This document shows, piece by piece, positions 1 through 19,374 of a stretch of 19,374 bases of DNA. Position 1 is the first letter of the stretch. Each line of letters opens with the position of its first letter. Under the pieces are notes generated by a model that did no database searches, was not told the DNA's origin, and saw only the letters and a program-made list of their open reading frames with translations. The stretch comes from a virus. Its lineage: Duplodnaviria > Heunggongvirae > Uroviricota > Caudoviricetes. The position numbers were made by a program, and so were the translations under genes. Location of the stretch: IMG/VR virus record IMGVR_UViG_2690316142_000006; one strand, given 5' to 3'.

Positions 1-372
1 GAAGGAGTGTCCGTTAAACTCAGGCTACCTCAGTCTGCTGATTTGAGTCGCTACAGTGGCACGGTGGTTAACCGTCCGACGTTTTTTGCTTTTGCAAAAG
101 GCGCGGGTGTGATGGGGGAAGCGGGACCTGAAGCCATTCTGCCACTGCGTCGCGGTGCTGATGGTAAGCTGGGGGGTGTGGCGGATACTGGTGGTTCAGG
201 CATGGTGATGTTTGCCCCGCAGTACAACATTGAGATCAATAACGATGGCACGAACGGGCAGATAGGTCCGGCTGCCCTGAAGGTGGTTTATGACCTCGGG
301 AAAAAAGCGGCCGCGGACTTTATGCAACAGCAGGCCCGTGATGGTGGCCGGTTAAGTGGAGCATACCGGTAA
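1..372 (+). CDS. H: Tail tape measure protein, C-terminal end (gpH-like); gene continues upstream of the window
   Basis: Frame is open from base 1 to TAA at 370-372. The stop overlaps the ATG of the M homologue, matching lambda order H-M-L-K-I-J. Gly-rich C-terminus. Confidence 0.7.
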   Translation, partial: EGVSVKLRLPQSADLSRYSGTVVNRPTFFAFAKGAGVMGEAGPEAILPLRRGADGKLGGVADTGGSGMVMFAPQYNIEINNDGTNGQIGPAALKVVYDLGKKAAADFMQQQARDGGRLSGAYR

Positions 373-701
373 TGGAGACGTTTCACTGGAAAGTGCGCCC
401 GGATATGAATGTGGTATCAGAGCCGAAAGTGGTGACAGTGAAGCTGGGCGATGGTTATGAACAGCGTCGTGCGGCGGGACTGAATAACCAGTTGTCGACT
501 TACAGCGTGAAGATACGTGTTCGTAAAGGTGAACACCCATTTTTAAAAGCCTTTCTGGAACGGCACGGTGGCGTCCGCGCATTTCAGTGGACGCCACCTT
601 ATGACTGGAAGCCGATCAGGGTGGTTTGTCGTAAATGGTCGGCAAGCGTGGGGGCGTTGTGGGTAACCATAACGGCAGATTTTGAACAGGTCGTGGCATA
701 G
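372..701 (+). CDS. M: Minor tail protein M (lambda gpM family)
   Basis: 109-aa ORF beginning METFHWKVRPDMNVVSEPKVV, recognised as lambda gpM-like. Start overlaps the H stop and the gene sits directly before the L homologue. Confidence 0.88.
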   Translation: METFHWKVRPDMNVVSEPKVVTVKLGDGYEQRRAAGLNNQLSTYSVKIRVRKGEHPFLKAFLERHGGVRAFQWTPPYDWKPIRVVCRKWSASVGALWVTITADFEQVVA

Positions 702-710
702 GAGGCTCTG

Positions 711-1409
711 ATGCAGGATATTCCACAGGAAACACATCATGAGACGACACGCCTCACTCAGTCAGCCCAGGTGGTGCTCTGGGAAATCGATCTGACAGAG
801 GTCGGTGGTGAACGTTATTTTTTCTGTAATGAGCAGAACGAAAAAGGTGAGCCGGTTACCTGGCAGGGGCGGCAGTATCAGGCATACCCCATTCAGGGGA
901 CGGGATTTGAACTGAACGGCAAGGGCAGTGCTGCCCGTCCGACACTGACGGTTTCTAACCTGCACGGAATGGTCACCGGGATGGCGGAAGACCTGCAGAG
1001 TCTGGTCGGCGGAACGGTGGTCAGGCGTAAGGTTTACGCCCGTTTTCTGGATGCGGTGAACTTCGTCAACGGAAACAGCGACGCCGATCCGGAACAGGAG
1101 GTGATCAGCCGCTGGCGCATCGAGCAGTGCAGCGAACTGAGCGCGGTCAGTGCCTCTTTTGTGCTGGCCACACCAACGGAGACGGATGGCGCGGTTTTCC
1201 CGGGGCGTATCATGCTGGCGAATACCTGTATGTGGACTTACCGTTCTGATGAGTGTGGTTACACGGGCAGGGCAGTGGCTGACGAGTTCGACAAACCAAC
1301 GACGGATATCCGGAAGGACAAATGCAGCAAGTGTATGCGCGGGTGTGAGTTGCGCAACAATACCGGTAATTTCGGCGGTTTCCTTTCCATCAATAAACTT
1401 TCTCAGTAA
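711..1409 (+). CDS. L: Minor tail protein L (lambda gpL family)
   Basis: 232-aa ORF with Cys-rich C-terminus (CSKCMRGCELRNNTGNFGGFLSINKLSQ) typical of gpL. Lies between the M and K homologues. Confidence 0.9.
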   Translation: MQDIPQETHHETTRLTQSAQVVLWEIDLTEVGGERYFFCNEQNEKGEPVTWQGRQYQAYPIQGTGFELNGKGSAARPTLTVSNLHGMVTGMAEDLQSLVGGTVVRRKVYARFLDAVNFVNGNSDADPEQEVISRWRIEQCSELSAVSASFVLATPTETDGAVFPGRIMLANTCMWTYRSDECGYTGRAVADEFDKPTTDIRKDKCSKCMRGCELRNNTGNFGGFLSINKLSQ

Positions 1410-1413
1410 ATCC

Positions 1414-2157
1414 ATGACACAGACAGAATCAGCGATTCTGGCGCACGCCCGGCGATGTGCGCCAGCGGAGTCGTGTGGCTTCGTGGTAAGAACGCCGGAG
1501 GGAGACAGGTATCTTCCCAGCGAGAATATCTCCGGTGAGCCGGAGGAACGGTTCCGGATGGCTCCGGAGGACTGGCTGCGGGCACAAATGCAGGGTGAGA
1601 TTGTGGCGCTGGTCCACAGTCATCCCGGTGGTCTGCCCTGGCTGAGTGAGGCTGACCGGCGGCTGCAGGTGCAGAGTGATTTGCCGTGGTGGCTGGTCTG
1701 CCGGGGGGCGATTCACAAGTTCCGCTGTGTGCCGCATCTCACCGGGCGGCGCTTTGAGCACGGGGTGACGGACTGTTACACGCTGTTCCGGGATGCTTAT
1801 CATCTGGCAGGGATTGAGATGCCGGATTTTCATCGCGGGGATGACTGGTGGCGTAACGGTCAGAATCTCTATCTTGACAATATGGAGGTGACGGGTTTTT
1901 ACCGTGTCGCACTGACAGAGGCACAGCCGGGCGATGTGCTGCTGTGCTGTTTTGGTTCATCGGTGCCGAATCATGCCGCCATTTACTGTGGTGACGGCGA
2001 GCTGCTGCACCATATTCCTGAACAACTGAGCAAACGAGAGAGGTATACCGACAAATGGCAGCGACGCACACACTCCCTCTGGCGTCACCGGGCATGGCGC
2101 GCATCTGCCTTTACGGGGATTTACAACGATTTGGTCGCCGCATCGACCTTCGTGTGA
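1414..2157 (+). CDS. K: Tail assembly protein K (MPN/JAMM plus NlpC/P60 motifs)
   Basis: Start chosen at the ATG (MTQTESAILAHARRC) 4 nt after the L stop; the track ORF from 1150 is an in-frame upstream extension inside L. JAMM-like motif HSHPGGLPWLSEAD (HxHx7SxxD); Cys (DCYTLF) and His (LLHHIP) as in NlpC/P60 peptidases. Confidence 0.85.
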   Translation: MTQTESAILAHARRCAPAESCGFVVRTPEGDRYLPSENISGEPEERFRMAPEDWLRAQMQGEIVALVHSHPGGLPWLSEADRRLQVQSDLPWWLVCRGAIHKFRCVPHLTGRRFEHGVTDCYTLFRDAYHLAGIEMPDFHRGDDWWRNGQNLYLDNMEVTGFYRVALTEAQPGDVLLCCFGSSVPNHAAIYCGDGELLHHIPEQLSKRERYTDKWQRRTHSLWRHRAWRASAFTGIYNDLVAASTFV

Positions 2158-2696
2158 AAACGGGGGCTGAAGCCATCCGGGCACTGGCCACACAGCTCCC
2201 GGCGTTTCGTCAGAAACTGAGTGACGGCTGGTATCAGGTGCGCATTGCCGGGCGTGATGCAGGTGAAACCGAATTGTCTGCCCGTCTTAATGAGCCGCTG
2301 GCAAATGGTGCAGTGATCCACATAGTACCGCGTCTGGTGGGAGCTAAAAGTGGCGGTGTGTTTCAGGCGGTGCTGGGGGCGGCTGTTATGGCGGTTGCTA
2401 TATGGATGCCGGGGGTAGGAATTATGGCGAGTAATCTGCTGTTTTCTCTCGGTGCCAGTATGACGCTTGGCGGTGTTGCACAGATGCTGGCACCGAAAGC
2501 CAGAACTCCCCGTACACAGACAACGGATAACGGTAAGCAGAACACGTATTTCTCGTCACTGGATAACATGGTTGCCCAGGGCAATGTTCTGCCCGTTCTG
2601 TACGGTGAAATGCGCGTGGGGTCACGTGTGGTTTCTCAGGAGATCAGCACGGCAGACGAAGGGGATGGTGGTCAGGTTGTGGTGATTGGTCGCTGA
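2055..2696 (+). CDS. I: Tail assembly protein I (lambda gpI family)
   Basis: 213-aa ORF MAATHTLPLASPGMARICLYGDLQRF with hydrophobic Gly/Ala-rich central segment. Overlaps the 3' end of K. An alternative start at 2094 (MARICLY) is possible. Confidence 0.85.
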   Translation: MAATHTLPLASPGMARICLYGDLQRFGRRIDLRVKTGAEAIRALATQLPAFRQKLSDGWYQVRIAGRDAGETELSARLNEPLANGAVIHIVPRLVGAKSGGVFQAVLGAAVMAVAIWMPGVGIMASNLLFSLGASMTLGGVAQMLAPKARTPRTQTTDNGKQNTYFSSLDNMVAQGNVLPVLYGEMRVGSRVVSQEISTADEGDGGQVVVIGR

Positions 2697-2714
2697 TGCA
2701 AAATGTTTTATGTG

Positions 2715-2738
2715 AAACCGCCTGCGGGCGGTTTTGTC
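2715..2738 (+). terminator. Short GC hairpin plus T-run in the I-J intergenic spacer (possible weak terminator or attenuator)
   Basis: aaaccgcc-tgcg-ggcggttt followed by tg/tcgttt. GAGG Shine-Dalgarno at 2750-2753 precedes the J ATG at 2757. Confidence 0.3.
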
Positions 2739-2756
2739 GTTTATGGAGCGTGAGGA

Positions 2757-5700
2757 ATGGGTAAAGGCAGCAGTAAGGGGCATACCCCGCGCGAAGCGAA
2801 GGACAACCTGAAATCCACGCAGTTGCTGAGTGTGATTGATGCCATCAGCGAAGGGCCGGTTGACGGTCCGGTGGATGGATTAAAAAGCGTGCTGCTGAAC
2901 GGTACGCCGGTCCTGGACAGCGAGGGGAAGACAAACTTTTCCGGTGTTACGGTGGTGTTCCGTGCAGGTGAGCAGGAGCAGACACCGCCGGAGGGTTTTG
3001 AATCCTCCGGCTCCGAGACGGTGCTGGGTACGGAAGTGAAATATGACACGCCGATCACCCGGACCATCACGTCGGCAAACATCGACCGTCTGCGCCTGAC
3101 CTTCGGTGTGCAGGCACTGGTGGAAACCACCTCAAAGGGTGACCGGAATCCGTCGGAAGTCCGCCTGCTGGTTCAGATACAGCGTAACGGTGGCTGGGTG
3201 ACGGAAAAAGACATCACCATTAAGGGCAAAACCACTTCGCAGTATCTGGCCTCGGTGGTGGTGGGTAACCTGCCGCCGCGCCCGTTTAATATCCGGATGC
3301 GCAGGATGACACCGGACAGCACCACAGACCAGCTGCAGAACAAAACGCTCTGGTCGTCGTACACCGAAATCATCGATGTGAAACAGTGCTACCCGAACAC
3401 GGCGCTGGTCGGCGTGCAGGTGGATTCAGAGCAGTTCGGTAACCAGCAGGTGAGTCGCAATTATCATCTTCGCGGGCGCATTCTGCAGGTGCCGTCGAAC
3501 TATAATCCGCAGACGCGGCAATACAGCGGTATCTGGGACGGAACGCTTAAGCCAGCATACAGCAACAACATGGCCTGGTGTCTGTGGGACATGCTCACTC
3601 ATCCGCGCTACGGCATGGGGAAACGTCTTGGTGCGGCAGATGTGGACAAATGGGCGCTGTATGTCATCGGCCAGTACTGCGACCAGTCAGTGACGGACGG
3701 ATTTGGCGGCACGGAGCCGCGCATCACCTGTAACTCTTACCTGACCACACAGCGTAAGGCGTGGGATGTTCTCAGTGATTTCTGCTCGGCGATGCGCTGT
3801 ATGCCGGTATGGAACGGACAGATGCTGACGTTCGTGCAGGACCGACCGTCGGATAAGGTGTGGACCTATAACCGCAGTAATGTGGTGATGCCGGACGATG
3901 GCGCGCCGTTCCGCTACAGCTTCAGCGCCCTGAAGGACCGCCATAATGCCGTTGAGGTGAACTGGATTGACCCAGATAACGGCTGGGAGACGGCGACAGA
4001 GCTTGTGGAGGATACGCAGGCCATTGTCCGTTACGGTCGTAACGTCACGAAGATGGATGCCTTTGGCTGTACCAGCCGGGGGCAGGCACACCGAGCCGGG
4101 CTGTGGCTGATTAAAACGGAACTGCTGGAAACGCAGACCGTGGACTTCAGCGTGGGCGCAGAAGGGCTTCGCCATGTACCGGGTGATGTCATTGAAATCT
4201 GCGATGATGATTATGCCGGTATCAGCACCGGTGGTCGCGTACTGGCGGTGAACAGCCAGACCCGGACGCTGACGCTCGACCGTGAAATCACGCTGCCGTC
4301 CTCCGGTACCACGCTGATAAGCCTGGTTGACGGAAGTGGCAATCCGGTCAGCGTGGAGGTCCAGTCCGTCACCGACGGCGTGAAGGTGAAAGTGAGCCGG
4401 GTTCCTGACGGCGTTGCAGAATACAGCGTGTGGGGGCTGAAGCTGCCGACGCTGCACCAGCGATTGTTCCGCTGCGTGAGTATCCGTGAGAACGACGACG
4501 GCACGTATGCCATCACCGCCGTGCAGCATGTGCCGGAAAAAGAGGCCATCGTGGATAACGGGGCACACTTTGACGGTGACCGGCGCGGCACGGTGAATGG
4601 TGTCACGCCGCCAGCGGTGCAGCACCTGACTGCCGAAGTCACCGCAGACAGCGGGGAATATCAGGTGCTGGCGCGATGGGACACGCCGAAGGTGGTGAAG
4701 GGTGTGAGCTTCCTGCTTCGCCTGACCGTGGCAGCGGACGACGGCAGTGAGCGGCTGGTCAGCACAGCCAGGACGACGGAAACCACATACCGCTTCAGGC
4801 AGCTGGCGCTGGGGAATTACAGTCTGACAGTCCGGGCGGTAAATGCCCGGGGGCAGCAGGGCGATCCGGCGTCGGTATCGTTCCGGATTGCGGCACCGGC
4901 AGCGCCTGTCACTATTGAACTGATACCGGGGTATTTTCAGATAACGGCGGTCCCGAAACTGGCTGTATATGACCCGACGGTGCAGTTTGAGTTCTGGTTT
5001 TCGGAAAAGCGGATTGCGGATATCAGGCAGGTTGAAACCAGCGCCCGCTATCTTGGCACGGCGCTGTACTGGATAGCCGCCAGTATCAATATCAGGCCGG
5101 GCCATGATTATTATTTTTACGTTCGCAGTGTGAACACCGTTGGCAAATCGGCATTTGTGGAGGCCATCGGTCGGGCGAGCGATGATGCAGAAGGTTATCT
5201 GAATTTTTATAAAGGGTTGATCAATAAAACGCATCTCGGCAAGGAGTTGTGGACGCAGATTGATAACGGTCAGCTTGCGCCGGACCTGACTGAAATCAGG
5301 ACGTCCATTACGAATGTCAGCAATGAAATCACGCTGCCATCCTCCGGCACCACGCTGATAAGCCTGGTTGACGGGCAGGGGAATCCGGTCAGCGTGGAGG
5401 TCCAGTCCGTCACCGACGGCGTGAAGGTAAAAGTGAGCCGTGTTCCTGACGGTGTTGCTGAATACAGCGTGTGGGGGCTGAAGCTGCCGACGCTGCACCA
5501 GCGATTGTTCCGCTGCGTGAGTATCCGTGAGAACGACGACGGCACGTATGCCATCACCGCCGTGCAGCATGTGCCGGAAAAAGAAGCCATCGTGGATAAC
5601 GGGGCGCACTTTGACGGCGACCAGAGCGGCACGGTGAATGGTGTCACGCCGCCAGCGGTGCAGCACCTGACTGCCGAAGTCACCGCAGACAGCGGGGAAT

Positions 5701-7295
5701 ATCAGGTGCTGGCGCGCTGGGACACGCCGAAGGTGGTGAAGGGCGTGAGCTTCCTGCTCCGTCTGACCGTAACAGCGGATGACGGCAGTGAGCGGCTGGT
5801 CAGCACGGCCCGGACGACGGAAACCACTTACCGCTTCACACAACTGGCGCTGGGGAACTACAGGCTGACAGTCCGGGCAGTAAATGCGTGGGGGCAGCAG
5901 GGCGATCCGGCGTCGGTATCGTTCCGGATTGCCGCACCGGCAGCGCTGTCGCGGATTGAGCTGACGCCGGGCTATTTTCAGATAACCGCCACGCCGCATC
6001 TTGCGGTTTATGATCCGACGGTACAGTTTGAGTTCTGGTTCTCGGAAAAGCGGATTGCGGATATCAGGCAGGTTGAAACCACAGCACGCTATCTTGGCAC
6101 GGCGCTGTACTGGATAGCCGCCAGTATCAATATCAAACCGGGCCATGATTATTACTTTTATATCCGCAGTGTGAACACCGTTGGCAAATCGGCATTCGTG
6201 GAGGCTGTTGGTCAGCCGAGTGATGATGCATCCGGTTATCTGGATTTTTTCAAAGGCGAGATAGGGAAAACCCATCTGGCTCAGGAGCTGTGGACGCAGA
6301 TTGATAACGGTCAGCTTGCGCCTGACCTGGCTGAAATCAGGACGTCCATTACGGATGTCAGCAATGAAATCACGCAGACCGTCAATAAGAAACTGGAAGA
6401 CCAGAGTGCGGCAATTCAGCAGATACAGAAGGTTCAGGTTGATACAAATAATAACCTGAACAGCATGTGGGCTGTGAAGCTGCAGCAGATGCAGGACGGA
6501 CGCCTTTATATCGCGGGTATTGGTGCCGGTATTGAGAACACCCCTGACGGCATGCAGAGTCAGGTGCTGCTGGCGGCGGACAGGATTGCGATGGTTAATC
6601 CTGCGAATGGCAACACAAAACCGATGTTTGTTGGTCAGGGCGATCAGATATTCATGAACGACGTGTTCCTGAAACGCCTGACGGCCCCCACCATTACCAG
6701 CGGTGGAAATCCATCGGCATTTTCCCTGACTCCGGACGGAAAGCTGACCGCTAAAAATGCGGATATCAGTGGCAGTGTGAATGCGAACGCCGGGACGCTC
6801 AACAATGTCACGGTAAATGAAAACTGTACGATTAAGGGCATGCTGGAGGCGACTCAGGTCAGAGGTGACTTCGTTAAAGCTGTATCCAAATCATTTCCGA
6901 AACAGGCTGGTACGTGGGGTAACACGGAAACACCAAACGGGACGGTTACAGTCACCATAAGCGATGATCATAACTTTGACCGCCAGATTATTATTCCGCC
7001 CATTATTTTTAACGGTATAGCGTATGACGATCCGGGGAGCGGAAATAACCCAGGAGGCACGCGATACACGGGTTATGGTTTTGAAGTTCGCAAAAACGGC
7101 GTATTAATCGCATCCAGAGAAACTAAAGGTGCCATTCCCGGTAGTTACAGTGCAGTTATTGATATGCCTAGTGGTGGTGGTAGCGTCACTCTGGAGTTTA
7201 AGATTTTCCAGAAAGGCAATCAGGGGGCAGGCAATATCACCGACTGTACGGTGATTGTGACCAAAAAAGCGGCTTCCGGCATCAGTATTCGTTGA
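2757..7295 (+). CDS. J: Tail tip / central tail fibre host-specificity protein J, 1512 aa, with an internal in-frame duplication
   Basis: N-terminus [34 protein letters not shown] matches lambda J as I recall it. Conserved J motifs throughout (e.g. [21 protein letters not shown]). About 347 aa longer than a lambda-type J because of the tandem duplication at 4284-6365. Confidence 0.9.
4284..6365 (+). repeat. Tandem direct repeat inside J: two 1041-bp units (4284-5324 and 5325-6365), about 95% identical
   Basis: Both units start with gaaatcacgcTGCC and the same 10-mer gaaatcacgc recurs at 6366. Protein block from [16 protein letters not shown] to TSIT(N/D)VSNE occurs twice. Unit length is a multiple of 3. 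Confidence 0.85.
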
Positions 7296-7317
7296 AATAT
7301 TTATAACCCCAATAAAT

Positions 7318-7344
7318 GGCGTCAGGAATGACGCCTTTTTTATT
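7318..7344 (+). terminator. Rho-independent terminator downstream of J
   Basis: ggcgtca-ggaa-tgacgcc followed by ttttttatt, 23 nt after the J stop. Confidence 0.6.
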
Positions 7345-7365
7345 GCAGAAAAGCGAGAGGTAATT

Positions 7366-7842
7366 ATGCGTAAAGTTTGTGCAGCCATTTTGTCCGCAGC
7401 CATTTGCCTGGCCGTATCCGGTGCGCCTGCATGGGCGTCTGAACATCAGTCCACGCTGAGCGCGGGGTATCTTCATGCCCGGACCAACGTTCCCGGCAGT
7501 GATGATCTGAACGGGATTAACGTGAAATACCGTTATGAGTTTACGGATACGCTGGGGCTGGTGACGTCATTCAGCTATGCAGGAGACAAGAATCGCCAGC
7601 TGACCCGTTACAGCGATACCCGCTGGCATGAAGATTCCGTGCGTAACCGCTGGTTCAGCGTGATGGCGGGGCCGTCTGTGCGCGTGAATGAATGGTTCAG
7701 CGCGTATGCGATGGCGGGTGTGGCTTACAGCCGTGTGTCGACTTTTTCCGGGGATTATATCCGCGTAACTGACAATAAGGGGAAAACGCACGATGTGCTG
7801 ACCGGAAGTGATGACGGTCGCCACAGCAACACGTCTCTGGCG
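7366..7842 (+). CDS. lom: Lom family outer-membrane protein (Ail/Lom/OmpX/PagC beta-barrel family), 3'-truncated at an N/junction
   Basis: Signal peptide MRKVCAAILSAAICLAVSGAPAWA, GAGAGG RBS, aromatic-rich beta-strand pattern. The reading frame runs into N at 7843 and then into J-internal sequence. Confidence 0.75.
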
Positions 7843-7843
7843 N
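7843..7843. other. Single unresolved base (N) at a junction between lom sequence and J-internal sequence
   Basis: Literal n in the sequence. Flanks are lom ...tctctggcg on the left and J-internal gcaccggcagcgcctgtcact on the right. Confidence 0.95.
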
Positions 7844-9187
7844 GCACCGGCAGCGCCTGTCACTATTGAACTGATACCGGGGTATTTTCAGATAACGGCG
7901 GTCCCGAAACTGGCTGTATATGACCCGACGGTGCAGTTTGAGTTCTGGTTTTCGGAAAAGCGGATTGCGGATATCAGGCAGGTTGAAACCACAGCACGCT
8001 ATCTTGGCACGGCGCTGTACTGGATAGCCGCCAGTATCAATATCAGGCCGGGCCATGATTATTATTTTTACGTTCGCAGTGTGAACACCGTTGGCAAATC
8101 GGCATTTGTGGAGGCCATCGGTCGGGCGAGCGATGATGCAGAAGGTTATCTGAATTTTTATAAAGGGTTGATCAATAAAACGCATCTCGGCAAGGAGTTG
8201 TGGACGCAGATTGATAACGGTCAGCTTGCGCCGGACCTGACTGAAATCAGGACGTCCATTACGAATGTCAGCAATGAAATCACGCAAACCGTCAATAAAA
8301 AACTGGAAAATCAGAGTGCTGCAATCCAGCAGATACAGAAAGTTCAGGTTGATACAAATAATAACCTGAACAGCATGTGGGCTGTGAAGCTGCAACAGAT
8401 GAAGGACGGACGCCTTTATATTGCGGGTATCGGTGCCGGTATTGAGAATACGCCAGCAGGAATGCAGAGTCAGGTGCTGCTGGCGGCAGACAGGATTGCG
8501 ATGATTAATCCTGCGAATGGCAACACAAAGCCGATGTTTGTTGGTCAGGGCGATCAGATATTCATGAACGACGTGTTCCTGAAATGCCTGACGGCTCCGA
8601 CCATTACCAGCGGCGGTAATCCTCCGGCATTTTCCCTGACACCTGGCGGACGGCTGACGGCGAAAAATGCCGATATCAGCGGTAACGTGAACGCGAACTC
8701 CGGGACGCTCAACAACGTCACGATTAATAAGAACTGTCGGGTTCTGGGAAAATTGTCCGCGAACCAGATTGAAGGCGATCTCGTTAAAACAGTGGGCAAA
8801 CCTTTCCCACGGGACTCCCGGGCACCGGAGAGGTGGCCATCAGGGACCATTACCGTCAGGGTTTATGACGATCAGCCGTTTGATCGGCAAATTGTTATTC
8901 CCGCGGTGGCGTTTCGCGGTGCTAAACATGAGCGGAAGAATAACAATATTTATTCGTCATGCCGCCTGATAGTGAAGAAAAACGGTGCTGAAATTTATAA
9001 CCGAACGACCCTGGATAATACGCTGATATATACGGGTGTTATTGATATGCCTGCCGGTCACGGTCACATGACGCTGGAGTTTTCTGTATCGGCATGGCTG
9101 GTAAATGGCTGGTATCCCACAGCAAGTATCAGCGATTTGCTGGTTGTGGTGATGAAGAAAGCCACTGCAGGCATCACGATTAGCTGA
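7844..9187 (+). CDS. J: J protein 3' fragment (second copy, no 5' part) with a different C-terminal receptor-binding region
   Basis: Starts mid-gene at sequence equivalent to J position 4893. A mosaic of unit-1-like and unit-2-like sequence. The C-terminal ~150 aa (...[35 protein letters not shown]...[10 protein letters not shown]) differs from the copy at 6840-7295. Confidence 0.8.
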
Positions 9188-9206
9188 ATTTTATAACCCA
9201 GATACG

Positions 9207-9233
9207 GGCACCAGAAATGGTGCCTTTTTTATT
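9207..9233 (+). terminator. Rho-independent terminator downstream of the J fragment
   Basis: ggcacc-agaaat-ggtgcc followed by ttttttatt. Confidence 0.55.
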
Positions 9234-9254
9234 GCAGAAAAGCGAGAGGTAATT

Positions 9255-9854
9255 ATGCGTAAAGTTTGTGCAGCCATTTTGTCCGCAGCCATTTGCCTGG
9301 CCGTATCCGGTGCGCCTGCATGGGCGTCTGAACATCAGTCCACGCTGAGCGCCGGGTATCTTCAGACCCATACTGATATGCCAGGCAGCGATGACCTGAA
9401 GGGCATTAACGTGAAATACCGTTATGAGTTTACGGACACGCTGGGGCTGATTACGTCATTCAGTTATGCCAACGCTGAAGATGAGCAAAAAACGCATTAC
9501 AGCGATACCCGCTGGCATGAGGATTCCGTGCGTAACCGCTGGTTCAGCGTGATGGCGGGGCCGTCTGTGCGCGTGAATGAATGGTTCAGCGCGTATGCGA
9601 TGGCGGGCGTGGCTTACAGCCGTGTGTCGACCTTCTCCGGGGATTATCTCCGCGTAACTGACAACAAGGGGAAAACGCACGATGTGCTGACCGGAAGTGA
9701 TGGCGGTCGCCACAGCAACACGTCTCTGGCGTGGGGGGCTGGCGTGCAGTTTAACCCGACCGAATCCGTGGCCATTGACCTTGCTTATGAAGGTTCCGGC
9801 AGTGGTGACTGGCGCACTGACGGTTTCATCGTGGGTGTCGGTTATAAGTTCTGA
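9255..9854 (+). CDS. lom: Lom family outer-membrane protein, intact (199 aa)
   Basis: Complete ORF with signal peptide and C-terminal ...GFIVGVGYKF ending in the terminal aromatic typical of beta-barrel outer-membrane proteins. Same upstream RBS context as the other copies. Confidence 0.9.
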   Translation: MRKVCAAILSAAICLAVSGAPAWASEHQSTLSAGYLQTHTDMPGSDDLKGINVKYRYEFTDTLGLITSFSYANAEDEQKTHYSDTRWHEDSVRNRWFSVMAGPSVRVNEWFSAYAMAGVAYSRVSTFSGDYLRVTDNKGKTHDVLTGSDGGRHSNTSLAWGAGVQFNPTESVAIDLAYEGSGSGDWRTDGFIVGVGYKF

Positions 9855-9882
9855 TTAGCCAGGTAACACAGTGTTATGACTG

Positions 9883-9906
9883 CCCGCTGGTTCAGGCGGG
9901 CTTTTT
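9883..9906 (+). terminator. Rho-independent terminator downstream of lom
   Basis: gcccgc-tggttca-gcgggc followed by ttttt, immediately upstream of the stf start. Confidence 0.6.
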
Positions 9907-9917
9907 GTGGGGTGAAT

Positions 9918-10244
9918 ATGGCAGTAAAGATTTCAGGTGTACTGAAAGATGGGGCGGGTAAACCTGTCGTAAATTGTGCGATTGAACTGCGGGCCAGAAG
10001 AACCAGTCCGACCGTTGTGGCACACGTTGTTGCCACTTGCGTGACGGACAATAACGGTGCTTATGTGATTGAGGCTGAGCCGGGGTATTACGAGGTTGCG
10101 CTTCACTGTAACGGCTGGCAGCCAACCCGTGTCGGGGATATTGATGTGGCACCGACTGATGCACCGGGGACACTGAACGCGTTTCTGAATGCACCAAAGG
10201 ATGGTGATTTACGTCCGGAGGTGATGAAGTGTCAGCGCCAGTGA
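9918..10244 (+). pseudogene. stf: Side tail fibre (stf) 5' fragment, interrupted after about 109 codons by an IS21-family element
   Basis: [12 protein letters not shown]... is homologous to the N-terminus of the full stf at 14926 but a diverged allele. The ORF stops at TGA 10242-10244 where the IS terminal sequence begins. The track ORF start at 9876 lies inside the lom terminator hairpin, so 9918 is preferred. Confidence 0.75.
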
Positions 10245-10330
10245 TATAAGACGGTAATTCGCCATTTGGATTGTCCGCTCCACCCAACATGTTGTTTCCT
10301 TAAGGTTCTCACACCAGAAAGGACATCAAC

Positions 10331-12300
<1,970 letters not shown>

Positions 12301-12349
12301 CGAAAGTATTTAGCGGGCATGAAAATGGCAAATAACGGTCAAACATCGT

Positions 12350-12360
12350 NNNNNNNNNNN
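12350..12360. other. Assembly gap (11 N)
   Basis: Literal n run. Left flank is the IS21-family right end, right flank is J-internal sequence. Confidence 0.98.
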
Positions 12361-14274
12361 AATCCGGTCAGCGTGGAGGTCCAGTCCGTCACCGACGGCG
12401 TGAAGGTAAAAGTGAGCCGTGTTCCTGACGGTGTTGCTGAATACAGCGTGTGGGGGCTGAAGCTGCCGACGCTGCACCAGCGATTGTTCCGCTGCGTGAG
12501 TATCCGTGAGAACGACGACGGCACGTATGCCATCACCGCCGTGCAGCATGTGCCGGAAAAAGAAGCCATCGTGGATAACGGGGCGCACTTTGACGGCGAC
12601 CAGAGCGGCACGGTGAATGGTGTCACGCCGCCAGCGGTGCAGCACCTGACTGCCGAAGTCACCGCAGACAGCGGGGAATATCAGGTGCTGGCGCGCTGGG
12701 ACACGCCGAAGGTGGTGAAGGGCGTGAGCTTCCTGCTCCGTCTGACCGTAACAGCGGATGACGGCAGTGAGCGGCTGGTCAGCACGGCCCGGACGACGGA
12801 AACCACTTACCGCTTCACACAACTGGCGCTGGGGAACTACAGGCTGACAGTCCGGGCAGTAAATGCGTGGGGGCAGCAGGGCGATCCGGCGTCGGTATCG
12901 TTCCGGATTGCCGCACCGGCAGCGCTGTCGCGGATTGAGCTGACGCCGGGCTATTTTCAGATAACCGCCACGCCGCATCTTGCGGTTTATGATCCGACGG
13001 TACAGTTTGAGTTCTGGTTCTCGGAAAAGCGGATTGCGGATATCAGGCAGGTTGAAACCACAGCACGCTATCTTGGCACGGCGCTGTACTGGATAGCCGC
13101 CAGTATCAATATCAAACCGGGCCATGATTATTACTTTTATATCCGCAGTGTGAACACCGTTGGCAAATCGGCATTCGTGGAGGCTGTTGGTCAGCCGAGT
13201 GATGATGCATCCGGTTATCTGGATTTTTTCAAAGGCGAGATAGGGAAAACCCATCTGGCTCAGGAGCTGTGGACGCAGATTGATAACGGTCAGCTTGCGC
13301 CTGACCTGGCTGAAATCAGGACGTCCATTACGGATGTCAGCAATGAAATCACGCAGACCGTCAATAAGAAACTGGAAGACCAGAGTGCGGCAATTCAGCA
13401 GATACAGAAGGTTCAGGTTGATACAAATAATAACCTGAACAGCATGTGGGCTGTGAAGCTGCAGCAGATGCAGGACGGACGCCTTTATATCGCGGGTATT
13501 GGTGCCGGTATTGAGAACACCCCTGACGGCATGCAGAGTCAGGTGCTGCTGGCGGCGGACAGGATTGCGATGGTTAATCCTGCGAATGGCAACACAAAAC
13601 CGATGTTTGTTGGTCAGGGCGATCAGATATTCATGAACGACGTGTTCCTGAAACGCCTGACGGCCCCCACCATTACCAGCGGTGGAAATCCATCGGCATT
13701 TTCCCTGACTCCGGACGGAAAGCTGACCGCTAAAAATGCGGATATCAGTGGCAGTGTGAATGCGAACGCCGGGACGCTCAACAATGTCACGGTAAATGAA
13801 AACTGTACGATTAAGGGCATGCTGGAGGCGACTCAGGTCAGAGGTGACTTCGTTAAAGCTGTATCCAAATCATTTCCGAAACAGGCTGGTACGTGGGGTA
13901 ACACGGAAACACCAAACGGGACGGTTACAGTCACCATAAGCGATGATCATAACTTTGACCGCCAGATTATTATTCCGCCCATTATTTTTAACGGTATAGC
14001 GTATGACGATCCGGGGAGCGGAAATAACCCAGGAGGCACGCGATACACGGGTTATGGTTTTGAAGTTCGCAAAAACGGCGTATTAATCGCATCCAGAGAA
14101 ACTAAAGGTGCCATTCCCGGTAGTTACAGTGCAGTTATTGATATGCCTAGTGGTGGTGGTAGCGTCACTCTGGAGTTTAAGATTTTCCAGAAAGGCAATC
14201 AGGGGGCAGGCAATATCACCGACTGTACGGTGATTGTGACCAAAAAAGCGGCTTCCGGCATCAGTATTCGTTGA
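12361..14274 (+). CDS. J: J protein 3' fragment (third copy), identical to J 5382-7295
   Basis: Translation is identical to the C-terminal 637 aa of the full J. The track ORF 12319-14274 (MKMANNGQTSXXXX...) is an artificial fusion across the N gap. Confidence 0.8.
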
Positions 14275-14296
14275 AATATTTATAACCCCAATAAAT

Positions 14297-14323
14297 GGCG
14301 TCAGGAATGACGCCTTTTTTATT
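14297..14323 (+). terminator. Rho-independent terminator downstream of J (copy of 7318-7344)
   Basis: Same hairpin plus T-run as 7318-7344. Confidence 0.6.
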
Positions 14324-14344
14324 GCAGAAAAGCGAGAGGTAATT

Positions 14345-14827
14345 ATGCGTAAAGTTTGTGCAGCCATTTTGTCCGCAGCCATTTGCCTGGCCGTATCCGG
14401 TGCGCCTGCATGGGCGTCTGAACATCAGTCCACGCTGAGCGCGGGGTATCTTCATGCCCGGACCAACGTTCCCGGCAGTGATGATCTGAACGGGATTAAC
14501 GTGAAATACCGTTATGAGTTTACGGATACGCTGGGGCTGGTGACGTCATTCAGCTATGCAGGAGACAAGAATCGCCAGCTGACCCGTTACAGCGATACCC
14601 GCTGGCATGAAGATTCCGTGCGTAACCGCTGGTTCAGCGTGATGGCGGGGCCGTCTGTGCGCGTGAATGAATGGTTCAGCGCGTATGCGATGGCGGGTGT
14701 GGCTTACAGCCGTGTGTCGACTTTTTCCGGGGATTATATCCGCGTAACTGACAATAAGGGGAAAACGCACGATGTGCTGACCGGAAGTGATGACGGTCGC
14801 CACAGCAACACGTCTCTGGCGCACTGA
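14345..14827 (+). pseudogene. lom: lom with an 83-bp internal deletion and frameshift (premature stop)
   Basis: Aligns to lom 9255-9854 up to ...NTSLA (tctctggcg), then resumes at cactgacggtttcatcgtgggtgtcggttataaattctga. This omits the equivalent of 9732-9814; the deleted block ends in ctggcg, the same hexamer that precedes it. Confidence 0.75.
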
Positions 14828-14888
14828 CGGTTTCATCGTGGGTGTCGGTTATAAATTCTGATTAGCCAGGTAACACAGTGTTATGACA

Positions 14889-14914
14889 GCCCGCCGGTTC
14901 AGGCGGGCTTTTTT
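14889..14914 (+). terminator. Rho-independent terminator downstream of lom
   Basis: gcccgcc-ggttca-ggcgggc followed by tttttt. Confidence 0.6.
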
Positions 14915-14925
14915 GTGGGGTGAAT

Positions 14926-17900
14926 ATGGCAGTAAAGATTTCAGGTGTACTGAAAGACGGCACAGGAAAACCGGTACAGAACTGCACAATCCAGCTGAAA
15001 GCAAAACGTAACAGCACCACGGTGGTGGTGAACACGCTGGCCTCAGAAAATCCGGATGAAGCCGGGCGTTACAGCATGGACGTTGAGTACGGTCAGTACA
15101 GCGTTATTCTGTTGGTGGAAGGATTCCCGCCGTCACATGCCGGGACCATCACCGTGTATGAAGATTCCCGACCCGGTACGCTGAATGATTTTCTCGGTGC
15201 CATGACGGAGGATGATGCCCGTCCGGAGGCACTGCGCCGTTTTGAGCTGATGGTGGAAGAGGTGGCGCGTAACGCGTCCGCGGTGGCACAGAACACGGCA
15301 GCCGCGAAGAAATCAGCCAGCGATGCCAGCACATCAGCCCGTGAGGCGGCAACCCATGCGACTGATGCTGCAGATTCAGCACGTGCAGCCAGCACGTCAG
15401 CCGGACAGGCCGCTTCGTCGGCTCAGTCAGCGTCTTCCAGCGCAGGAACGGCATCAACAAAGGCCACTGAAGCCTCAAAAAGTGCTGCCGCTGCAGAGTC
15501 CTCAAAAAGCGCGGCGGCTACCAGTGCCGGTGCGGCGAAAACGTTAGAAACGAATGCGGCAGCGTCACAACAATCAGCAGCCACTTCTGCATCCACCGCG
15601 ACCACGAAAGCGTCAGAAGCTGCCACCTCAGCCCGGGATGCGTCGGCTTCAAAAGAGGCGGCAAAATCATCAGAAACGAACGCATCATCAAGCGCCAGTA
15701 GCGCAGCTTCCTCGGCGACGGCGGCTGCAAATTCTGCGAAGGCGGCCAAAACGTCCGAGACGAACGCCAGGTCTTCTGAAACGGCAGCGGGACAGAGTGC
15801 CTCAGCTGCGGCAGGCTCAAAAACAGCGGCTGCGTCGTCTGCCAGCGCCGCGTCAACAAGTGCCGGGCAGGCCTCAGCCAGTGCCACCGCCGCCGGAAAA
15901 TCGGCAGAAAGCGCCGCATCATCCGCTTCAACAGCCACAACGAAGGCTGGCGAAGCCACTGAGCAGGCCACGGCAGCAGCGAGGTCAGCTTCCGCAGCGA
16001 AGACATCCGAAACGAACGCGAAAGCGTCGGAAACCCGTGCAGAATCCTCAAAAACGGCTGCCGCATCGTCCGCCAGTTCGGCGGCGTCATCGGCATCATC
16101 GGCGTCTGCTTCAAAAGATGAGGCGACCAGACAGGCGTCAGCAGCGAAGGGCAGCGCCACGACGGCATCCACGAAGGCGACAGAGGCTGCTGGTAGTGCG
16201 ACGGCAGCAGCTCAGAGCAAAAGTACGGCGGAATCTGCAGCAACGCGCGCTGAGACAGCGGCAAAACGGGCAGAGGATATTGCATCCGCCGTGGCGCTTG
16301 AGGATGCGAGCACGACGAAAAAGGGGATAGTACAGCTCAGTAGTGCGACTAACAGCACTTCCGAGTCACTGGCGGCAACACCAAAAGCCGTTAAGGCCGC
16401 GTATGACCTGGCTAACGGGAAATACACCGCACAGGATGCAACGACAGCACAGAAAGGGATAATCCAGCTAAGCAGCGCGACCAACAGCACGTCTGAAACG
16501 CTGGCGGCAACGCCAAAGGCAGTAAAAGCAGCCAATGACAATGCTGAGAAACGTCTGCAGAAAGATCAGAACGGTGCGGATATCCCTGGCAAAGACACCT
16601 TTACGAAAAATATTGGTGCCTGCCGTGCCTTCGGTGGGTCAGTAAGCACAACAACAGGAAACTGGACGACTGCACAGTTTATCGAGTGGCTGGATTCTCA
16701 GGGAGCATTTAACCATCCATACTGGATGTGCAAGGGTTCCTGGTCTTATGGCAATAATAAAATCATTACTGATACTGGCTGCGGTAATATTCATCTCGCC
16801 GGAGCTGTCATTGAAGTAATGGGGATAAAGTCAGCGATGACGATCCGCATTACCACTCCGACCACATCCAGCGGTGGCGGAACAACCAACGCCCAGTTTA
16901 CCTATATTAATCACGGAACAGATTATTCACCTGGCTGGCGAAGGGACTATAACTCCAGAAATAAGCCAACGGCATCAGAGATCGGGGCGCTACCGTCAGG
17001 TGGAACAGCAGTATCATCAGTTAATCTGGCTTCAAAAGGTCGGGTAGCCGCGCTGACAGACAATACGCAGGGGGCAGCAGGTCTTGAGTTATACGAGGTG
17101 TATAACAACGGATATCCAACAGCGTATGGAAATATCATTCACCTGAAAGGGATGACAGCCGTTGGCGAAGGTGAGTTACTCATCGGCTGGAGTGGTACAA
17201 GCGGTGCTCATGCTCCGGCATTTATTCGTTCACGACGGGATACGACCGACGCAAACTGGTCGCCGTGGGCGCAGCTTTACACCTCGGCTCATCCTCCTGC
17301 AGAGTTTTATCCAGTCGGTGCACCAATCCCGTGGCCATCAGATACCGTTCCGTCTGGTTATGCCCTGATGCAGGGGCAGACTTTTGACAAATCTGCTTAC
17401 CCGAAACTTGCAGCCGCTTATCCGTCAGGCGTGATCCCTGATATGCGTGGCTGGACGATTAAGGGCAAGCCCGCCAGTGGTCGTGCCGTATTGTCTCAGG
17501 AACAGGATGGCATTAAATCGCACACCCACAGCGCCAGCGCATCCAGTACGGATTTGGGGACGAAAACCACATCGTCGTTTGATTACGGCACTAAATCCAC
17601 GAATAACACCGGGGCGCATACGCACAGTCTGAGCGGCTCTACAAGTTCAGCTGGGGCCCACCAACATAGTCAGACTGGGCCCAGAACGAATAGCGGGAGT
17701 CAACCTACTGGAATGTTTCCGGCAGGGAGTACTCAAGTTAGCGGGACTAATCAGGTTGGTATCAGTGGCTCATTAACCAGTGGCACCTCCCAATGGGTAG
17801 GTAAATCATCTTCAGAAGGAAACCATACACACTCACTGTCCGGCACAGCAGCATCTGCGGGTGCACACGCGCATACTGTCGGTATTGGTGCTCATACGCA

Positions 17901-18009
17901 CTCTGTTGCGATTGGTTCACATGGACACACCATCACCGTTAACGCTGCTGGTAACGCGGAAAACACCGTCAAAAACATCGCATTTAACTATATTGTGAGG
18001 CTCGCATAA
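14926..18009 (+). CDS. stf: Side tail fibre protein Stf (about 1027 aa) with a T4 gp37-like His-rich tip
   Basis: N-terminus [60 protein letters not shown] matches lambda Stf as I recall it. Long Ala/Ser/Thr-rich low-complexity shaft; two copies of KGI(V/I)[11 protein letters not shown](S/T)[11 protein letters not shown]; seven HxH motifs near the C-terminus. True start is ATG 14926; the track ORF starts at GTG 14920. Confidence 0.9.
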
Positions 18010-18590
18010 TGGCATTCAGAATGAGTGAACAAGCACGGACCATAAAAATTTATAACCTGCTGGCCGGAACTAATGAATTTATTGGTGAAGGTGACGCATA
18101 TATTCCGCCTCATACAGGTCTGCCTGCAAACAGTACCGATATTGCACCGCCAGATATTCCGGCTGGTTTCGTGGCTGTTTTCAACAGTGATGAGTCATCG
18201 TGGCATCTCGTTGAAGATCATCGGGGTAAAACGGTTTATGACGTGGCTTCCGGCGACGCGTTATTTATTTCTGAACTCGGCTCATTACCGGAAAATGTCA
18301 CCTGGTTATCCCCGGAAGGGGAGTTTCAGAAGTGGAACGGCACAGCCTGGGTGAAGGATACGGAAGCAGAAAAACTGTTCCGGATCCGGGAGGCGGAAGA
18401 AACAAAAAACAGCCTGATGCAGGTAGCCAGTGAGCATATAGCGCCGCTTCAGGATGCTGTGGATCTGGAGATCGCAACGGAGAAAGAAACCTTGTTGCTG
18501 GAAGCTTGGAAAAAGTATCGGGTGTTGCTGAACCGTGTTGATACATCAACTGCACCGGATATTGAATGGCCAGTAGCACCTATAGGGTAA
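18009..18590 (+). CDS. tfa: Tail fibre assembly protein Tfa (lambda Tfa family), 193 aa
   Basis: [54 protein letters not shown]... is near-identical to lambda Tfa as I recall it. Start overlaps the stf stop (taATGg). Confidence 0.9.
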
Positions 18591-18599
18591 ATTCGTAAT

Positions 18600-19339
18600 G
18601 ATTACCTAAATACGTTATTCTTTTGTTAAAAAAGTGATTTTGCTATAGGTAGGGAGTATGTTCTTGGATTAAGAATAAAAAATCGCCATGAAAGAGCTTC
18701 ATGGCGAGTACATAAACGTACAAAATGTGATGAAAGTAGAGTGGCGTAAGCCACTATATTAAGATATGACAATAGCGAAGAAAAGTAAATAACATTTTAT
18801 GGACGTTTAATTGTTAATTATAAAAACTAGAGTGCCCGATATTGTTTATCTTGCTTTAAAATAATGTACTCAAACCAAATTTTTGAGCTAAAAGCTCAAA
18901 TAATATAAATGCAATAATAATGTTTAATAAGACAATTAGCTTGCTTTGTATTTTCATTTCGGAATACTGTTAAGTAACTTTGATGACCCTAACAATAGAT
19001 CGGAATTTTCTTAGAGTCAATGGTCACTGTTTTTGCTTGCAAAGCAAATGTTTTGGTGGTTATAAGTCGTCTTAATATAGTCACGCATGCAACTTGTTCC
19101 ATGCGGAGATTAAAGATTGGAATATAACGCGAAGATGGAATTAAATTACATTTGCAATAATTAATTTATTATTACTCAATAATTACCGATATTATTATTG
19201 TAAATTAATCATTAGAATGCAAAAAGAAATGTAACGGCAAAATAAGAGGACGATAGCTGAGAAAAAAGCGTGCTTTCCCAATCTGGGGCAAATCACGTCT
19301 GAATGACACCTGAAAACAGGTGGTAGCCTCAAGAAGGCT
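18600..19339. other. AT-rich (about 30% GC) non-coding region between tfa and IS1
   Basis: No ORF of 60 aa or more on either strand. All three minus-strand frames carry frequent stops (tta/cta/tca triplets checked through 18716-18970). Several short palindromes. Base composition differs sharply from the ~50-55% GC tail genes. Confidence 0.7.
18671..18706 (-). terminator. Hairpin with a T-run on the minus strand (possible terminator for leftward transcription)
   Basis: cgccatgaa-agagc-ttcatggcg (9-bp stem); the flanking plus-strand aagaataaaaaat reads as a T-run on the minus strand. Confidence 0.4.
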
Positions 19340-19374
19340 GGTGATGCTGCCAACTTACTGATTTAGTGTATGAT
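19340..19374 (+). mobile_element. IS1 terminal inverted repeat and first 35 bp (element continues beyond the window)
   Basis: ggtgatgctgccaacttactgatttagtgtatgat matches the start of IS1 as I remember it. Confidence 0.8.

Follow-up and report, generated by a model that had tools for sequence, protein, structure and literature searches.

Whether a phage tail tip has been lengthened by an in-frame tandem duplication, or whether the long gene is a product of assembly, is the question raised by a 4539-bp open reading frame (ORF; Table 1) that stays open for 1512 aa in the ORF list of the window, by which we mean the whole 19,374-bp stretch of DNA analysed here. The initial annotation described two 1041-bp units lying head to tail within this gene, bounded by the 10-mer GAAATCACGC at 4284, 5325 and 6366, and proposed two origins for them, a real microhomology-mediated recombination or a chimeric assembly of the J genes of two prophages.

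A tandem repeat within a gpJ-type gene

Self-BLAST and a motif count recovered both the head-to-tail units (4284–5324 and 5325–6365) and the three copies of the 10-mer. The alignment of 4283–5334 with 5324–6375 had a period of 1041 and an identity of 91.1% over 1053 columns; compared without gaps, the units share 90.6% of their nucleotides and 91.9% of their amino acids (319/347), a lower nucleotide identity than the ~95% first estimated. The 10-mer also occurs at 8276 and 13345, giving five matches in the window against 0.04 expected by chance. The initial annotation likened unit 1 to the allele of the J fragment at 7844–9187 and unit 2 to another allele, an assignment borne out by the 99.3% identity between the 3′ part of unit 1 (4893–5334) and 7844–8285.

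Alignment to lambda gpJ (1132 aa; PDB 8iyk, 8k35 and 8xcg), proposed earlier as a check, placed residues 1–835 of the window J against gpJ 1–835 and its C-terminal part against the gpJ fibre and receptor-binding structures (E = 0 against 8iyk_J, phmmer). The Pfam set of gpJ was found above cut-offs (FNIII-A_GpJ, Phage-tail_3, Ig_J, Ig_J_second, Phage_Tail_Tip and Ig_GpJ_C), and by its ordered domains and its similarity to solved gpJ the protein is of the gpJ type. As recorded, however, the ORF departs from the single central domains and the ~1130–1165 aa of that type: it is 347 codons longer, and both Ig_J and Ig_J_second occur twice. The 1512-aa protein is a singleton, present on one contig; in the same collection, the proteins of its neighbours appear in 543 and 1212 index blocks.

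The window is a gapped draft record

The window is the whole of record CXBN01000105.1, from draft assembly GCA_001251235.1, and protein databases list its J under Shigella sonnei. Gap characters interrupt it at two places, with 1 N and 11 N (Table 1), and self-BLAST revealed an exact repeat of 2461 bp (5382–7842 and 12361–14821, 100% identical). The gaps, this repeat and the draft status of the record were all absent from the initial annotation. We rejected a reading of the repeat as a 6979-bp tandem duplication (5382–12360, then 12361 onward) because it covers the first 2461 bp only.

Table 1 Features of the window, with the S. sonnei tail locus (A or B) to which each belongs.
Feature	Position	Strand	Content or remark
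Chimeric 1512-aa 'J' ORF	2757..7295	+	J_B codons 1–859 joined to J_A codon 510–stop
Unit 1, locus-B allele of J codons 510–856	4284..5324	+	Inside the 99.78% locus-B match
Unit 2, locus-A allele of J codons 510–856	5325..6365	+	Inside 5324–7842, 100.000% locus A, 2519 bp
Probable false join, switch from locus B to locus A	5324..5334	+	11-nt overlap TGAAATCACGC
Piece 1, locus B	1..5334	+	Truncated tape-measure 3′ end, M, L, K, I, J_B nt 1–2578
Piece 2, locus A, first copy	5324..7842	+	J_A nt 1527–end and lom_A to its deletion point
Single-N scaffold gap	7843..7843	.	Separates locus A (lom) from locus B (middle of J)
Piece 3, locus B	7844..12349	+	J_B 3′ part, lom_B, 122-aa stf stub, IS21-like element (~10230–12349)
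11-N scaffold gap	12350..12360	.	Separates the IS21-like element from the middle of J_A
Piece 4, locus A	12361..19374	+	J_A nt 1585–end, lom_A (160 aa), stf (1029-aa ORF), tfa (193 aa)

The window interleaves two tail loci of finished S. sonnei chromosomes

The complete chromosome CBDDMI010000001.1 carries two paralogous lambdoid tail loci in the same orientation, locus A at 1.27 Mb and locus B at 1.95 Mb, ~680 kb apart, each encoding a J with a single copy of Ig_J and Ig_J_second (1165 aa in locus A, J_A; 1159 aa in locus B, J_B). Locus A has the order ...H-M-L-K-I-J-lom(160 aa)-stf-tfa-IS1 and is alike in 53G (HE616528.1), CP019689.1 and CBDDMI010000001.1, and locus B, with the order H′-M-L-K-I-J-lom-stf′::IS21-like, is alike in CBDDMI010000001.1 and in several further S. 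sonnei contigs of chromosome size. Locus B is what remains of a degraded prophage: an IS interrupts the tape measure gene and the IS21-like element interrupts stf. E. coli FDAARGOS_943, tried as a stand-in reference, was only 92–99% identical and was superseded by the S. sonnei chromosomes; its two prophages illustrate that upstream tail genes can be identical while J differs.

Mapped to these loci, the window resolves into four pieces that run B, A, B, A, each 99.8–100% identical to one locus but interleaved, whereas the finished loci lie far apart with one normal J each. Adjacent segments therefore map to distant places of CBDDMI010000001.1 (1.27 versus 1.95 Mb), as expected of a misassembly. 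Piece 1 matches L007 3077–8410 (CBDDMI010000001.1) at 99.78% without gaps, and in the complete genome its left end borders an IS3-family element. Piece 2 is identical over 2519 bp to L013 7959–10477, with L015 matching likewise, and ends after a 28-nt run common to lom_A and lom_B, exactly at their divergence. In piece 3, 7844–10657 matches L007 at 99.8% and 10653–11327 matches L007 12045–12719, and the IS21-like element encodes IstA/IstB by Pfam. Piece 4 is 100.000% identical to L013 8017–15030 over 7014 bp; it starts at the start of a 47-nt run common to A and B and ends at the edge of IS1, whose InsA adjoins this locus-A end in complete genomes. Two of the three piece edges beside N gaps sit where such a common run (28 or 47 nt) begins or ends, and each of the two gaps lies exactly at a change of locus, of which the record has three.

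Between the two locus-B pieces there is an overlap of 441 bp (with three mismatches, all locus-A bases) and between the two locus-A pieces one of 2461 bp (100% identical), so that one genomic stretch is represented twice for both loci, again as expected of a misassembly. The second 2461-bp copy starts directly after the IS21-like element, as it might if an IS21-like-element rearrangement, by circular-intermediate integration or by recombination between IS copies, had made the repeats around a 4.5-kb insert. We dropped this reading, which we consider extremely improbable, because both boundaries of the insert are N gaps (11 N between IS and J, 1 N at the other end) and no sequenced junction supports it; in complete genomes, moreover, the sequence after the locus-B element holds other IS elements and a DUF4376 gene instead of J_A. 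The IS21-like element in J of E. coli VTB97379v, 86% identical, is a simple insertion at another site and is unrelated to the structure of the window.

The junction between the units is confined to this record

The two units do not descend from a single parent gene: unit 1 comes from locus B (99.8% identity) and unit 2 from locus A (100%). In BLAST searches locus-B matches stop at 5334 and locus-A matches begin at 5324, leaving an 11-nt overlap that consists of the 10-mer plus one shared base. Past this overlap the true locus-B sequence continues with AAACCGTC..., and ahead of it the true locus-A sequence reads ...CTCGACCG; the junction 27-mer is GTCAGCAATGAAATCACGCTGCCATCC, for which the true continuations are GTCAGCAATGAAATCACGCAAACCGTC in locus B and CTCGACCGTGAAATCACGCTGCCATCC in locus A. 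Every J of this type has the 11-nt motif twice, with a spacing of 1041 nt.

None of the 5426 complete E. coli genomes searched covered at least 80% of a 301-mer spanning this junction; every match ended at 5334 or began at 5324, and the full ORF yielded only ~3498-bp matches in complete E. coli genomes, each as two query pieces. A 21-mer across the junction had two matches in GTDB representative genomes and IMG/VR, both in unrelated DNA with similarity limited to the 21-mer. Among the S. sonnei chromosome-sized records examined there was no over-long J; most encode 1159 or 1165 aa, the exceptions being a J of 1151 aa in one record and a J split into 452 + 726 aa in another.

These results bear on the first of the proposed origins, an out-of-register microhomology recombination between J_B and J_A at the 11-nt repeat that would yield a hybrid 1512-aa tip with two Ig_J/Ig_J_second sets. 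The junction is free of N and keeps the ORF open and in frame, as a genuine in-frame duplication would, and the microhomology that borders the units at all three positions could in principle mediate such an event; both points count against an artefact. The units are, however, alleles from loci 680 kb apart rather than copies of one gene, the record has two further A/B switches over N gaps with both loci doubled and overlapping, the junction is missing from all complete E. coli genomes searched, and the protein is a singleton. Because J_A and J_B share long identical stretches, recombination between them would be expected in register, and locus B, with its tape measure gene and stf both cut, could not supply a functional tail. 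We therefore regard a genuine duplication as very unlikely. It is hardly more credible that the hybrid J, with its second Ig_J/Ig_J_second module ahead of the fibre, is real in this one isolate and that the N gaps and interleaving seen in the rest of the record reflect an unrelated assembly problem.

A real tandem duplication of ~680 kb, formed by unequal sister-chromosome exchange and captured by the assembler at its B-left/A-right joint, would suit the direct orientation of loci A and B in the complete chromosome, and the path 1–7842 followed by 14822–19374 is the type of joint expected. Homologous exchange would nevertheless keep J in register and at its normal length rather than offset it by 1041 bp at an 11-nt homology, and the N-bounded B insert at 7844–12349 and the doubled representation would be left unexplained. 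Nothing in the record requires such an event, and we give it almost no weight.

Locus-B pieces resemble a mixed consensus, and normal J genes can be rebuilt

Nearly all mismatches between the window and locus B carry the locus-A base (16 of 17 overall; 11 of 12 in piece 1 and 5 of 5 in piece 3). Two copies of one B stretch even disagree with each other, having B bases at 5041–5045 and A bases at 7992–7996. Together these observations indicate a mixed A/B consensus in the locus-B pieces. Joining 2757–5334 to 8286–9187 gives a 1159-aa J that differs by three residues from the J_B of complete genomes, and the A part of the chimeric ORF is an exact suffix of J_A. Undoing the chimera gives J proteins of 1159 and 1165 aa, the normal lengths found in complete genomes.

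A probable origin in scaffolding and gap closing

Judging from the sequence comparisons, the tandem duplication is almost certainly a scaffolding and gap-closing artefact of a short-read draft S. sonnei assembly. Of the two origins first proposed, the chimeric assembly of two prophages' J genes is thus upheld and the real microhomology recombination is not, on the basis of the ~680 kb between the loci and the N gaps at the other switches. J_A and J_B have numerous identical stretches, so read pairs would connect contigs of different loci, and a scaffolder would lay the pieces in series as B, A, B, A. Gap-closing software would then extend every edge into gaps that do not exist, which would account for the 441-bp and 2461-bp overlaps between pieces of the same locus. 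Two gaps would be left open, as 1 N and 11 N, and the first gap would count as closed, since B sequence extended rightward and A sequence extended leftward by chance have 11 nt in common, TGAAATCACGC. Because 1041 is divisible by 3, no frameshift resulted, and gene callers annotated the ORF as a J of 1512 aa.

What we observed directly is that the pieces come from two loci, that the record has gaps and overlaps, and that the junction is unique. The particular software we infer from features of the record and from a 10-nt threshold, which together would fit a pipeline of Velvet, SSPACE and GapFiller; we found no paper linking GCA_001251235.1 to a specific pipeline. GapFiller by default treats a gap as closed once the extensions from its two sides share at least 10 nucleotides (PMC3446322), a minimum that the 11-nt closure in the record just exceeds. 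A paper on the Sanger pipeline, whose dataset includes 299 S. sonnei assemblies, describes SSPACE and GapFiller as 'greedy algorithms' that 'can lead to false joins' (PMC5320598), and the residual 1-N and 11-N gaps and the flanks that extend into one another in this record resemble such joins.

Over-long J genes in draft assemblies

The initial annotation suggested that, if the duplication were real, the tail tip would gain a further set of central domains. We find no evidence that the tip is lengthened, the doubling of Ig_J and Ig_J_second being a property of the chimeric ORF, and locus B is in any case a decayed remnant. The ORF nonetheless sits in public databases as "phage attachment tail tip protein J [Shigella sonnei]", alongside comparable over-long J singletons of 1304–1882 aa, and draft-based surveys of tail-fibre length or domain shuffling would score such ORFs as new architectures. 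We propose to screen for such false positives by N characters in or beside the gene, by singleton status and by the mapping of pieces to two loci of a finished genome.

Four other over-long draft J ORFs, of 1720 aa in S. sonnei (P0001), 1442 and 1412 aa in E. coli (P0003 and P0009) and 1882 aa (P0004), are likewise singletons with an internal tandem J repeat, but the end points of their repeats differ from one another. Whereas the junction in the window was closed without N, two of the three over-long draft J genes inspected, those in FTVF01000064.1 (S. sonnei, 1720 aa) and UDEU01000011.1 (E. coli, 1412 aa), have a single N exactly at the duplication junction.

Structure of the repeat and of the record

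Self-BLAST of the window aligned 4283-5334 with 5324-6375 at a period of 1041 bp and 91.1% identity, and the 10-mer GAAATCACGC was found at 4284, 5325 and 6366, as well as at 8276 and 13345 (five occurrences against 0.04 expected by chance), confirming the tandem repeat described in the initial annotation. The 1512-aa J frame is also open, as had been claimed, while the identity of the two 1041-bp units, previously put at ~95%, was lower in an ungapped count (90.6% for DNA and 91.9%, or 319/347 residues, for protein). The predicted protein has the domains of lambda gpJ, Ig_J and Ig_J_second being present twice each, and can be aligned to solved lambda gpJ. At the junction the units overlap by 11 nt, TGAAATCACGC (5324-5334), which is the 10-mer plus one more common base.

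The window is the complete 19,374-bp record CXBN01000105.1 of draft assembly GCA_001251235.1, and its J protein carries the label Shigella sonnei. It holds one N at 7843 and eleven at 12350-12360. The 2461 bp at 5382-7842 are repeated at 12361-14821 with zero differences, and 4893-5334 recurs at 7844-8285 with three clustered differences. Given these gaps, the internal repeats and the whole-record draft status, none of which the initial annotation mentions, the record is a scaffold of three pieces (1-7842, 7844-12349 and 12361-19374). In finished genomes its left end (1) adjoins an IS3-family element and its right end (19374) adjoins IS1; contigs that end at IS elements are usual in short-read assemblies. 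A 121-aa ORF at 7-372 is the C-terminal stub of the tape-measure gene, which is cut by the IS3-family element in finished genomes.

Two source loci in finished S. sonnei chromosomes

Exact-sequence lookup of the 122-aa side tail fibre (stf) stub and the 160-aa Lom located two lambdoid tail loci, A and B, at separate places and in the same orientation in CBDDMI010000001.1 (4.82 Mb). Locus A has the same appearance in strain 53G (HE616528.1) and CP019689.1, and locus B in several further chromosome-sized S. sonnei contigs; among the finished or chromosome-sized S. sonnei records examined, none had a J longer than 1165 aa.

Features of the window and their counterparts in finished S. sonnei chromosomes
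Feature	Position	Source	Detail
J ORF	2757-7295	window	1512 aa
Segment	1-5334	locus B	99.78%, 12 mismatches, ungapped
Segment	5324-7842	locus A	100.000% over 2519 bp
Segment	7844-10657	locus B	99.8%
Segment	10653-11327	locus B	IS21-like element, past a nested IS
Segment	12361-19374	locus A	100.000% over 7014 bp
lom_B	9255-9854	window
stf_B stub	9876-10244	window	122 aa
IS21-like element	~10230-12349	window	IstA 390 aa, IstB 266 aa
lom_A	14345-14827	window	160 aa
Direct repeat in stf_A	16321-16407 / 16453-16539	window	87 nt, 77% identity
Locus B	~1.95 Mb	CBDDMI010000001.1	upstream IS, truncated tape-measure end, M, L, K, I, J 1159 aa; then 199-aa Lom, 122-aa stf stub, IS21-like element interrupted by other IS elements
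Locus A	~1.27 Mb	CBDDMI010000001.1	tape measure, M, L, K, I, J 1165 aa; then 160-aa Lom, 1027-aa stf, 193-aa tfa, IS1

Mapped onto these loci, the record reads B, A, N, B, eleven Ns, A, and judged by this alignment the boundary between units 1 and 2 corresponds to the first switch from B to A. True locus-B sequence continues past 5334 as AAACCGTC..., and true locus-A sequence ahead of 5324 is ...CTCGACCG. The B pieces overlap by 441 bp and the A pieces by 2461 bp, as happens when contig edges are lengthened to fill a non-existent gap. lom_A and lom_B are identical over the 28 nt up to 7842, where the first A piece ends exactly at their point of divergence, and the last A piece (from 12361) starts where a 47-nt run common to both loci begins. 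Undoing the interleaving restores ordinary genes: 2757-5334 joined to 8286-9187 encodes a 1159-aa J differing at 3 residues from the J of finished locus B (J_B), and the translation of 5325-7295 is an exact suffix of the locus-A protein (J_A).

Where the B pieces depart from finished locus B, 16 of 17 positions carry the locus-A base; such differences lie at 1989-4631, 7992-7996 and 9293-9296. This points to a mixed consensus of paralogous prophage loci, which is a likelier source of the A bases than gene conversion in this isolate; the two representations of one B stretch conflict with each other, 5041-5045 having the B bases and 7992-7996 the A bases.

The junction in other genomes and proteins

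A 301-nt junction query against 5426 complete E. coli genomes matched J in 4374 of them, reaching 80% coverage in none, and the matches ended at 5334 or began at 5324. With the whole 4539-bp ORF as query, these genomes yielded just ~3498-bp J genes, each split into two query pieces, and the rebuilt J_B gave a single ungapped 3480-bp match at up to 98.6% identity. The junction-specific 21-mer occurred twice, in a GTDB genome and in an IMG/VR contig, in each case within unrelated DNA that shows no resemblance outside those 21 nt. In a collection of 5.8 billion protein clusters the 1512-aa protein is a singleton from one contig; the index of this collection lists 543 blocks with the flanking stf stub and 1212 with the exact Lom.

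An assembly origin for the long J

GapFiller by default counts a gap as closed once the two extensions share an overlap of 10 nt or more (parameter n; PMC3446322), against which the junction overlap is 11 nt. The Wellcome Sanger pipeline runs Velvet and SSPACE, followed by GapFiller for 120 rounds. According to its authors these tools are greedy and "can lead to false joins", and the 299 S. sonnei assemblies in their public dataset have a mean of 405 contigs (PMC5320598). Leftover gaps of one and eleven Ns in a record submitted as a contig would fit a pipeline of the Velvet/SSPACE/GapFiller type, and we infer that such software produced CXBN01000105.1. A false join at the 11-nt motif would keep the reading frame, because each J of this type contains the motif twice, at a spacing of 1041 nt (347 codons), and would thus leave a plausible-looking long ORF.

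On sequence grounds, the J repeat is almost certainly a chimeric assembly and not real biology. The mapping to B and A, the N gaps and the unique junction bear out the second of two alternatives in the initial annotation, a chimera of two prophage J genes. If loci A and B had undergone an unequal exchange, or if microhomology had mediated a true duplication, the rest of the record's interleaving would still have to be artefactual, and the join would have been made out of register at 11 nt despite the long in-register identities on offer. Locus B, moreover, is a decayed prophage remnant from which no tail could be made. Taken together, such real events are very improbable.

Over-long J genes elsewhere

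Protein search returned further over-long J singletons of 1304-1882 aa, whose repeat end points differ from case to case. The 1720-aa J of S. sonnei draft FTVF01000064.1 has repeats at 11318-12981 and 12983-14646 with a single N between them (12982) and a second N at 15204, and the 1412-aa J of E. coli UDEU01000011.1 has a repeat region at 6427-7949 with a single N at the junction (7185); both are artefacts of the same class as the window's long J. On the 904-kb contig JBNDCC010000003.1, a 1304-aa J holds a perfect 610-bp tandem repeat (7898-9122) with zero Ns, followed directly by IS66-family genes and then a short ORF with the J C-terminal domain, and may represent a true duplication that arose recently in a pseudogene, or else an error of long-read assembly. 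An Escherichia-type J of 1882 aa with four identical tandem ~250-aa blocks (P0004), filed under Bacillus thuringiensis Sbt003, probably reflects contamination plus repeat misassembly. The sole value of the window's long J is as a caution about over-long tail-tip proteins in databases built on draft assemblies.

Other features of the two loci

The lom_A gene lacks 83 nt that are present in lom_B; a CTGGCG direct repeat bounds this stretch on both sides (junction at 14816-14821), and the difference has the look of a genuine microhomology-flanked deletion. The resulting frameshift and immediate stop (...SLAH*) leave Lom at 160 aa, lacking the final barrel strands, and locus A of the finished S. 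sonnei chromosomes examined carries this form. The direct repeat within stf_A probably represents an internal repeat motif of the fibre.

The IS21-like element, which cuts stf_B to its stub, is intact in the window; in finished S. sonnei genomes a nested IS3-family element interrupts this copy past the equivalent of 10657, and the match to finished locus B stops after 11327. The window's element could have been built as a consensus from other IS copies, or else this isolate lacks the nested insertions. An IS21-like element of E. coli VTB97379v (istA annotated as ISEc62 family) is just 86% identical to it.

E. coli FDAARGOS_943 carries two prophages with protein-identical V, G, T, H, M, K and I that diverge from J on, a natural case of the paralogy that misleads short-read assemblers. 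Both have an ipaH effector gene downstream.
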